45,036 nucleotides of DNA from assembly GCA_031551355.1 (NCBI GenBank), contig JAVBNT010000018.1, forward strand, positions 1 through 45,036, in the 5' to 3' direction. The notes beneath the pieces were generated by a model. That model was not told the DNA's origin and searched no databases. It worked only from the letters and a program-made list of their open reading frames with translations. Below, one piece after another: positions 37,760-37,820 of the stretch. The DNA comes from Candidatus Xenobia bacterium. Its GTDB lineage: Bacteria > Vulcanimicrobiota > CADAWZ01. Every line of letters begins with the position of its first letter. The first letter of the stretch is position 1. The translations under genes and the position numbers were made by a program.

Positions 37760-37820
37760 TTGACAGATTAGCACAGTTGTCCTATAATTCGTTTAGGACA
37801 ACTGTGCTAATCTGTTTTTT
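37760..37820. promoter_or_regulatory. Composite element. A perfect consensus promoter, TTGACA-N17-TATAAT, is embedded in a perfect 20-bp inverted repeat (cagattagcacagttgtcct / aggacaactgtgctaatctg) followed by T6. It reads as intrinsic terminator, promoter and candidate operator at once.
   Basis: -35 at 37760-37765, -10 at 37783-37788. Inverted-repeat arms at 37764-37783 and 37795-37814, then tttttt at 37815-37820. Confidence 0.5.

Follow-up and report, generated by a model that had tools for sequence, protein, structure and literature searches.

Palindromic operators that overlap the core promoter or the transcription start, with two dimers bound per control region, are typified in the TetR family by TetR on tetO1-tetO2 and by QacR on IR1. 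In such systems a dedicated repressor holds a strong promoter off and is released by a ligand, and the 10-bp spacing between the half-sites of an operator is that of a single TetR dimer. Two further systems approach the locus described here more closely. According to the summary in PMC3717773, which cites Rodikova et al. 2007 (FEBS Lett 581:1190), two dimers of the TetR-family repressor HlyIIR of Bacillus cereus bind a perfect 44-bp inverted repeat (22 bp x 2). In mycobacteria, the TetR-type KstR operator TnnAACnnGTTnnA, defined by phylogenetic footprinting, is a palindrome overlapping its own promoter at the -10 (PMC1995591).

The DNA analysed here (a complete contig of 45,036 bp from a metagenome-assembled genome, hereafter the window) carries on its + strand the sequence TTGACA-GATTAGCACAGTTGTCC-TATAAT at 37760-37788, in which a promoter scan placed the -35 hexamer at 37760-37765 and the -10 hexamer at 37783-37788. 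An initial sequence-only reading had described this as an exact sigma-70 consensus promoter, and the match is indeed 12/12 with a 17-nt spacer. Allowing one mismatch, four TTGACA/TATAAT sites were found in the whole window, where 0.41 would be expected; apart from this one, just the site at 20829-20857 is perfect. The promoter is built into an inverted repeat whose arms, at 37763-37784 and 37794-37815, match over 22 nt with 100% complementarity and are separated by a 9-nt gap that contains most of the -10. The perfect complementarity reported in the first reading holds, but the arm length of 20 bp does not, and the left arm, said to consist of the spacer plus the first -10 base, comprises the final three bases of the -35, the entire spacer and the initial two bases of the -10. 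A T6 run (TTTTTT, 37815-37820, + strand) is present as reported, except that its first T also closes the right arm. A search of the 45-kb window for a second copy of the arm sequence found none.

Each arm contains a 16-bp pseudo-palindrome of the form TAGNAC-N4-GTNCTA with half-site centres 10 bp apart. The first, O1 (TAGCACAGTTGTCCTA, 37769-37784), occupies the promoter spacer, and its terminal TA provides the first two bases of the -10. The second, O2 (TAGGACAACTGTGCTA, 37794-37809), covers the predicted transcription start, which the usual distance of 7-8 nt past the -10 would place at about 37795-37796. That the inverted repeat is perfect over 22 nt follows from O2 being an exact mirror copy of O1 plus the flank of O1. 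In the window the half-sites read GCAC...GTCC and GGAC...GTGC. The earlier proposal of an operator centred on the -10 is thus retained as far as an operator is concerned, with two mirrored 16-bp sites in place of one 20-bp palindrome.

Downstream of the promoter lies a tightly packed + strand cluster of seven genes (37857-42442) with intergenic gaps of 18-31 nt, and a terminator scan with a loop limit of 8 nt predicted no + strand terminator inside it. Gene 1 (37857-38309) encodes a secreted tRNA_anti-like (OB-fold) protein; it starts at a TTG at 37857 behind a strong Shine-Dalgarno sequence (AAAGGAGG, 37840-37847). Genes 2-5 (38341-41500) encode a Flavodoxin_4 protein, two proteins with a metallo-beta-lactamase fold and an aldo/keto reductase. 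Gene 6 (41532-42179) encodes a TetR-family repressor (TetR_N PF00440, E = 2e-13), and the TetR stop overlaps by 4 nt the last gene of the operon, a DUF2316 gene (42176-42442). The database gene call for the TetR protein is 207 aa, and its real start may lie eight codons further in. Exact-sequence look-ups of the window proteins returned no match, which for two of them is explained by the TTG start or a differing gene call. The gene upstream of the promoter, an alpha/beta-hydrolase gene at 36785-37657 (Abhydrolase_1, E = 2.6e-20), is co-directional, so that read-through from it would run into the palindrome.

We consider it very probable that the element is a strong sigma-70/sigma-A-type promoter of the operon 37857-42442 combined with two sites for the operon's TetR repressor, which would then probably be autoregulated. 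As in the first reading, the TetR protein encoded at 41532-42179 is the natural candidate for the cognate of O1 and O2, since it is the sole member of its subfamily in the window and the motif is confined to the 37760-37788 promoter; the assignment is proposed here from co-occurrence, and a TetR paralogue encoded beyond the 45 kb analysed could be the protein that actually binds. We infer binding, repression, the start site and a ligand response. One TetR dimer would bind each 16-bp pseudo-palindrome TAGNAC-N4-GTNCTA; if the start is taken at about 37796, O1 would extend from about -27 to -12 and O2 from about -2 to +14. With both dimers bound, the whole core promoter would be covered and RNA polymerase excluded, and a small-molecule ligand would release the dimers and turn the operon on. 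With the repressor gene inside the operon, induction would raise repressor levels as well, giving negative autoregulation, and the pairing of a perfect-consensus promoter with a dedicated repressor could provide a large dynamic range.

This arrangement shares with TetR/tetO1-tetO2 and QacR/IR1 the placement of palindromic sites over the core promoter and start and the proposed use of two dimers. It differs from them in the half-site (TAGNAC-N4-GTNCTA), in the exact mirroring of its sites and in the position of the repressor gene, which stands sixth in the regulated operon and is not a divergent gene. The 22-nt arms recall the HlyIIR repeat as summarised in the source above. The centre of that repeat, however, is 48 bp 5' of the start, whereas in the window one site fills the spacer, the other covers +1, and a 9-nt gap with most of the -10 separates them. 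HlyIIR and the window TetR match in the helix-turn-helix region only (2fx0/2jj7, E ~1e-4), which makes this an analogy and not orthology. With KstR the locus has in common a similar half-site (TAGAAC ... GTTCTA), the overlap with the -10 and its recognition by phylogenetic footprinting (PMC1995591), but the centre is 2 bp in KstR against 4 bp in the window and 5 bp in one relative (L131), and KstR is an actinobacterial regulator of a lipid/cholesterol regulon with no close sequence relation to the window TetR. Literature searches that combined the half-site strings with TetR returned, apart from KstR, primers and unrelated papers (EppR) and no description of this operator.

The closest homologues of the window TetR are 41-57% identical to it. 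Eight of their loci (L002, L004, L005, L006, L008, L009, L130 and L131) had readable upstream DNA; L007 was left out, having just 54 nt 5' of the TetR gene. The motif or a close variant was present in 8/8 of these loci, where the sites lie at the promoter of the gene cluster to which TetR belongs. In L002, L004, L005, L006, L008 and L130, six of the eight, there are exactly two motif copies, at one promoter each. Across 140 kb of relative loci together with the window, no TAGNAC-N4-GTNCTA site was found elsewhere at up to one mismatch.

L004 (a Lacrimispora MAG; TetR 47% identical) reads TTGACA-ttt-TAGCACACTTGTACTA-ttctatatt-TAGTACAAGTGTGCTA before a TetR-Amidohydro_2-DUF2316 cluster; L005 (54%) reads TTGACA-aat-TAGTACAATTGTCCTA-ttatata-TAGGACATATGTACTA before TetR-tRNA_anti-like-SDR; and L006 (49%) reads TTGACA-tat-TAGGACCGACGTACTA-aattatcgct-TAGTACGTCGGTCCTA before TetR-tRNA_anti-like-Flavodoxin_4. 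In L002 (55%), TTGACA-aat-TAGTACACGTGTGCTA-taaagttg-TAGTACAGTTGTTCTA forms the operon's first promoter and the TetR gene is operon-internal, as in the window. A scan of genome contigs with gene 1 identified one further locus, L001 (an Oscillospiraceae MAG), a short contig without a TetR gene, in which TTGACA-tat-TAGTACGACTGTGCTA-tattgtaaa-TAGCACAGTCGTACTA precedes an aldo/keto reductase gene. This promoter-operator sits just 3' of the gene matching gene 1; L001 was rejected as an orthologous operon, since gene 1 matches only a domain of a larger protein there. L008 and L130 (42-44%) each have two sites in tandem, neither being the mirror copy of the other, L009 (42%) has one site with one mismatch and keeps its register to the -35, and in L131 (41%) the sites are mirrored and their centre is 5 bp.

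Conservation extends to the spacing between promoter and site. An alignment of six loci showed the TTGACA of the -35 to be invariant and to lie 3 nt before O1, and the -10 always to open with the terminal TA of O1. Among the readable TetR loci this register (TTGACA, 3 nt, site, terminal TA opening the -10) was kept in 6/8, and the O1 register is exact at seven promoters besides that of the window (L001, L002, L004, L005, L006, L086 and L109). In L130 this register is found on the minus strand, with a -35 of TTGACT. The metagenome loci L086/L067 and L109, which are close relatives by their TetR scores (250-254 bits), keep it for one site and have the second upstream of the -35. The site accompanies TetR relatives across differing gene orders; linkage of TetR and DUF2316 genes recurs in L004 and L007. 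The helix-turn-helix stretch ISVGNLTY-FKKKE-L, which includes the recognition helix, is identical in 10/10 TetR proteins compared, and this invariance fits a common half-site. The promoter-operator module is thus conserved beside relatives of the window TetR, and this conservation of the motif at their promoters strongly supports the earlier interpretation as a promoter with a TetR operator. The most divergent TetR (41%) is that of L131, where the pair at ~5940-5990 reads TAGTAC-AATAT-GTACTA with a 9-nt gap; its centre of 5 bp instead of 4 indicates that half-site spacing is not fixed in the TetR subfamily.

The same association was found in metagenome contigs from DNA alone. A scan for TTAGNAC-N4-GTNCTA, 3-12 nt and TAGNAC-N4-GTNCTAA returned at least 120 stretches with at least 106 distinct site pairs; as the pattern demands two sites and the flanking T/A, the frequency of single sites is not derivable from it. 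An HMM built from the TetR homologues was then run against stop-to-stop reading frames of these loci. Among the matches listed, 58/106 pairs had a TetR frame in their locus, and for 56 of the 58 this frame began or ended no more than 150 nt from the site; the 680 kb searched contained only 69 TetR frames. The motif predicts adjacent TetR genes, and since the frames abut most of the TetR-bearing pairs, TAGNAC-N4-GTNCTA is, as judged from these sequences, the signature by which the operators of a broad TetR subfamily can be recognised. Many of the contigs L010-L129, from marine and other environments, carry paired TAGAAC-N4-GTTCTA sites directly at TetR genes.

The TAGAAC-N4-GTTCTA form resembles Gram-positive SOS boxes (GAAC-N4-GTTC), so the sites could be boxes for another regulator, either LexA-type or another TetR paralogue. 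The number of metagenome matches of exactly this form speaks for such a reading, as do the 48/106 pairs, among the matches listed, with no TetR frame in the locus. These frame-less pairs possibly reflect short contigs, remoter TetR proteins or other regulators with GAAC/GTAC-type boxes. The window half-sites, however, are GCAC/GGAC and lack the GAAC ... GTTC core of the LexA box, no LexA-like gene is linked, and the TAGAAC-type pairs too mostly abut TetR frames. Given also that the site moves with relatives of the window TetR through varied gene orders, we regard another regulator as improbable here. Motif-based regulon predictions could nevertheless mis-assign TAGAAC-N4-GTTCTA boxes to LexA.

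A palindrome of this length and perfection might instead be structural or mobile DNA with no regulatory role, such as a REP-like repeat, a transposon end or a cruciform site, and the window does hold further long inverted repeats. Those have no sequence in common with the palindrome, which is single-copy in the window, and a position relative to the -35, the -10 and TetR genes that is conserved in unrelated genomes would be foreign to such an element; we give this explanation hardly any credence.

The question of termination is less one-sided. Folded as RNA, the palindrome reaches -38.7 kcal/mol (z = -11.7; 0/200 shuffles as stable), and as DNA -24.3 kcal/mol (z = -12.8). Like a Rho-independent terminator, it forms a stable stem-loop with a U-run immediately after it, past a co-directional gene, and the first reading proposed a dual use of this kind. 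Under it the TetR operator and promoter would also be an efficient terminator or insulator for the hydrolase operon, and selection for the RNA hairpin would preserve the perfection of the inverted repeat. Several observations favour this. The hairpin, with U6 directly after it, begins 106 nt past the hydrolase gene, and the scan with a loop limit of 8 nt listed no other terminator-like site at 37657-37760; the hairpin itself escaped that scan with its loop of 9 nt. Only about 2% of the window's intergenic positions are succeeded by a T5 within 0-2 nt, and a T7 stands past the second site of L002, where the TetR gene is likewise operon-internal. The arms moreover co-vary, with 8/22 pairs altered on both sides, a number matched by 0/500 shuffles.

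Other observations speak against it. The second site has no T-run in L001, L004, L006 and L131 and a weak one in L005, and in L001 and L004 it is missing despite co-directional upstream genes. Among the matches listed, a T5 lies within 14 nt of only 2/21 mirrored pairs, a frequency no higher than for non-mirrored pairs. The symmetry itself is dispensable, as the sites of L008, L130, L086 and L109 are not mirror copies, and the covariation is strictly Watson-Crick in 17 both-side cells against one G-U cell, favouring DNA symmetry over RNA pairing. A stem of 22 bp with 41% GC and a loop of 9 nt also falls outside the usual dimensions of a terminator; long stems can still terminate. The sequence of the palindrome is constrained mainly by its promoter and operator functions, and the U-run is not conserved in related loci. 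With a T-run only in the window and L002, and no enrichment in the family, terminator function cannot be the reason for the palindrome. We therefore hold the dual-use explanation to be a minority possibility, and view substantial termination in vivo at the hairpin and U6 with similar doubt. The hairpin may stop read-through RNA from the hydrolase gene as a secondary, local property; termination is plausible as a possibility of this locus and not as a property of the element class.

The stricter alternative, a terminator that ends the upstream operon and to which the promoter match and the TetR gene are coincidental, has the terminator-like form in its favour and little else. A chance 12/12 match is rare, given that even with one mismatch only 0.41 sites are expected per window; the register of TTGACA and site is invariant in six loci that mostly have no T-run; the tie between the motif and neighbouring TetR genes would go unexplained; and in L006 the upstream gene is divergent, which leaves nothing to terminate. 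This explanation is, in our judgement, highly improbable.

Two other RNA-level or transcriptional roles were considered and set aside. A regulated 5' leader was rejected since the predicted 5' UTR of the promoter-started RNA is unstructured (z = -0.46), and a minus-strand promoter in the right arm was rejected on account of its sequence (AAAACA-17-TAAACG) and of having no gene to drive. Rfam searches of the palindrome gave nothing but generic hairpin hits on miRNA precursor models, all below threshold, and no family reached its gathering score in the whole window. One further pairing was noted in read-through RNA only: CUCCUUUU at 37720-37727 can pair with the Shine-Dalgarno stretch of gene 1, AAAAGGAG at 37839-37846, in a helix that encloses the large hairpin. 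The CUCCUUUU/AAAAGGAG pairing would shut off gene 1 translation on read-through RNA, and may be due to chance.

Returning to the reading of a strong promoter with two TetR sites, the feature that it leaves over is the symmetry between the sites. O1 and O2 mirror each other exactly even at positions that vary between lineages, namely half-site position 4, the 4-bp centre and the flanks. The both-side changes in the six-locus alignment (8/22 arm pairs, 17 cells) are almost purely Watson-Crick with one G-U cell, and point to symmetry at the DNA level. In the metagenome set, all six free positions were mirrored in 17/63 TetR-adjacent pairs against 2.3 expected with shuffled partners, while perfect direct copies numbered 4 against 1.0 expected (both among the matches listed). 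Operator function alone does not account for exact mirroring at lineage-variable positions.

Three candidate causes can be named: two interacting dimers may read the DNA indirectly and symmetrically, template switching may correct the quasi-palindrome, or a cruciform or hairpin may have a function. L002, L008, L130, L086 and L109 presumably function with non-mirrored sites, and the gap between paired sites ranges from 3 to 12 nt, the full range that the scan pattern allowed. Non-mirrored relatives and a variable gap together mean that a rigid dimer-of-dimers read-out is not an obvious cause. Template-switch correction of quasi-palindromes is a known mutational process. A further idea is that mirror complementarity is itself selected, so that the element is dual-coded as a duplex operator pair and as a functional hairpin, be it an RNA terminator/insulator or a DNA cruciform. 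We think this rather unlikely; if true, a widespread uncharacterised TetR subfamily would use dual-coded control regions.

The comparison provides an uncharacterised TetR subfamily with a concrete operator, TTAGNAC-N4-GTNCTAA, and a fixed layout of promoter and operator. This subfamily is widespread in metagenomes, and the genes linked to it are small redox and hydrolase genes (flavodoxin, aldo-keto reductase, metallo-beta-lactamase fold, Amidohydro_2, PNPOx, tRNA_anti-like and DUF2316). The assignment can be used for regulon prediction, and a perfect-consensus promoter fully covered by two operators may yield an orthogonal repressor-promoter pair. No concept is changed by it, as TetR dimers on promoter-overlapping palindromes are textbook repression; the point of some interest is why the paired sites so often mirror each other exactly.

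Genes for outer-membrane proteins (OEP, Porin_5, autotransporter) were seen in the window (20948-22306), in L002 (16206-16618) and in L008 (8620-10532), which suggests diderm, possibly Negativicutes-like hosts; the closest named relatives are nonetheless Lacrimispora and Oscillospiraceae genomes. The second perfect promoter of the window (TTGACA-17-TATAAT, 20829-20857, + strand) lies about 90 nt before an OEP/HlyD efflux operon (20948 onward) and is preceded by GCCTA, as is the promoter at 37760-37788. After it, to about 20905, stand three GGTYNAACC-like boxes (ggttcaacc, ggtctaacc and ggttaaacc) that look like the operators of another repressor.

Other inverted repeats were also observed in the window. 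Just past the last gene of the TetR operon, at 42513-42550, is an inverted repeat with perfectly matched 17-nt arms, a 4-nt loop and no T-run, and between convergent genes at about 42594-42625 is a conventional terminator-like hairpin with A/T runs on both sides. An intergenic inverted repeat at 13098-13153 has 26-nt arms that are 96% complementary, a 4-nt loop and no T-run. Finally, an imperfect palindrome with 65-nt arms (77% complementary) at 29755-29878, in a 570-nt gap, adjoins a gene for an OLD-family AAA_15/TOPRIM nuclease (27735-29324, minus strand); it has no Rfam match, and could be a non-coding RNA or an element of a defence system.
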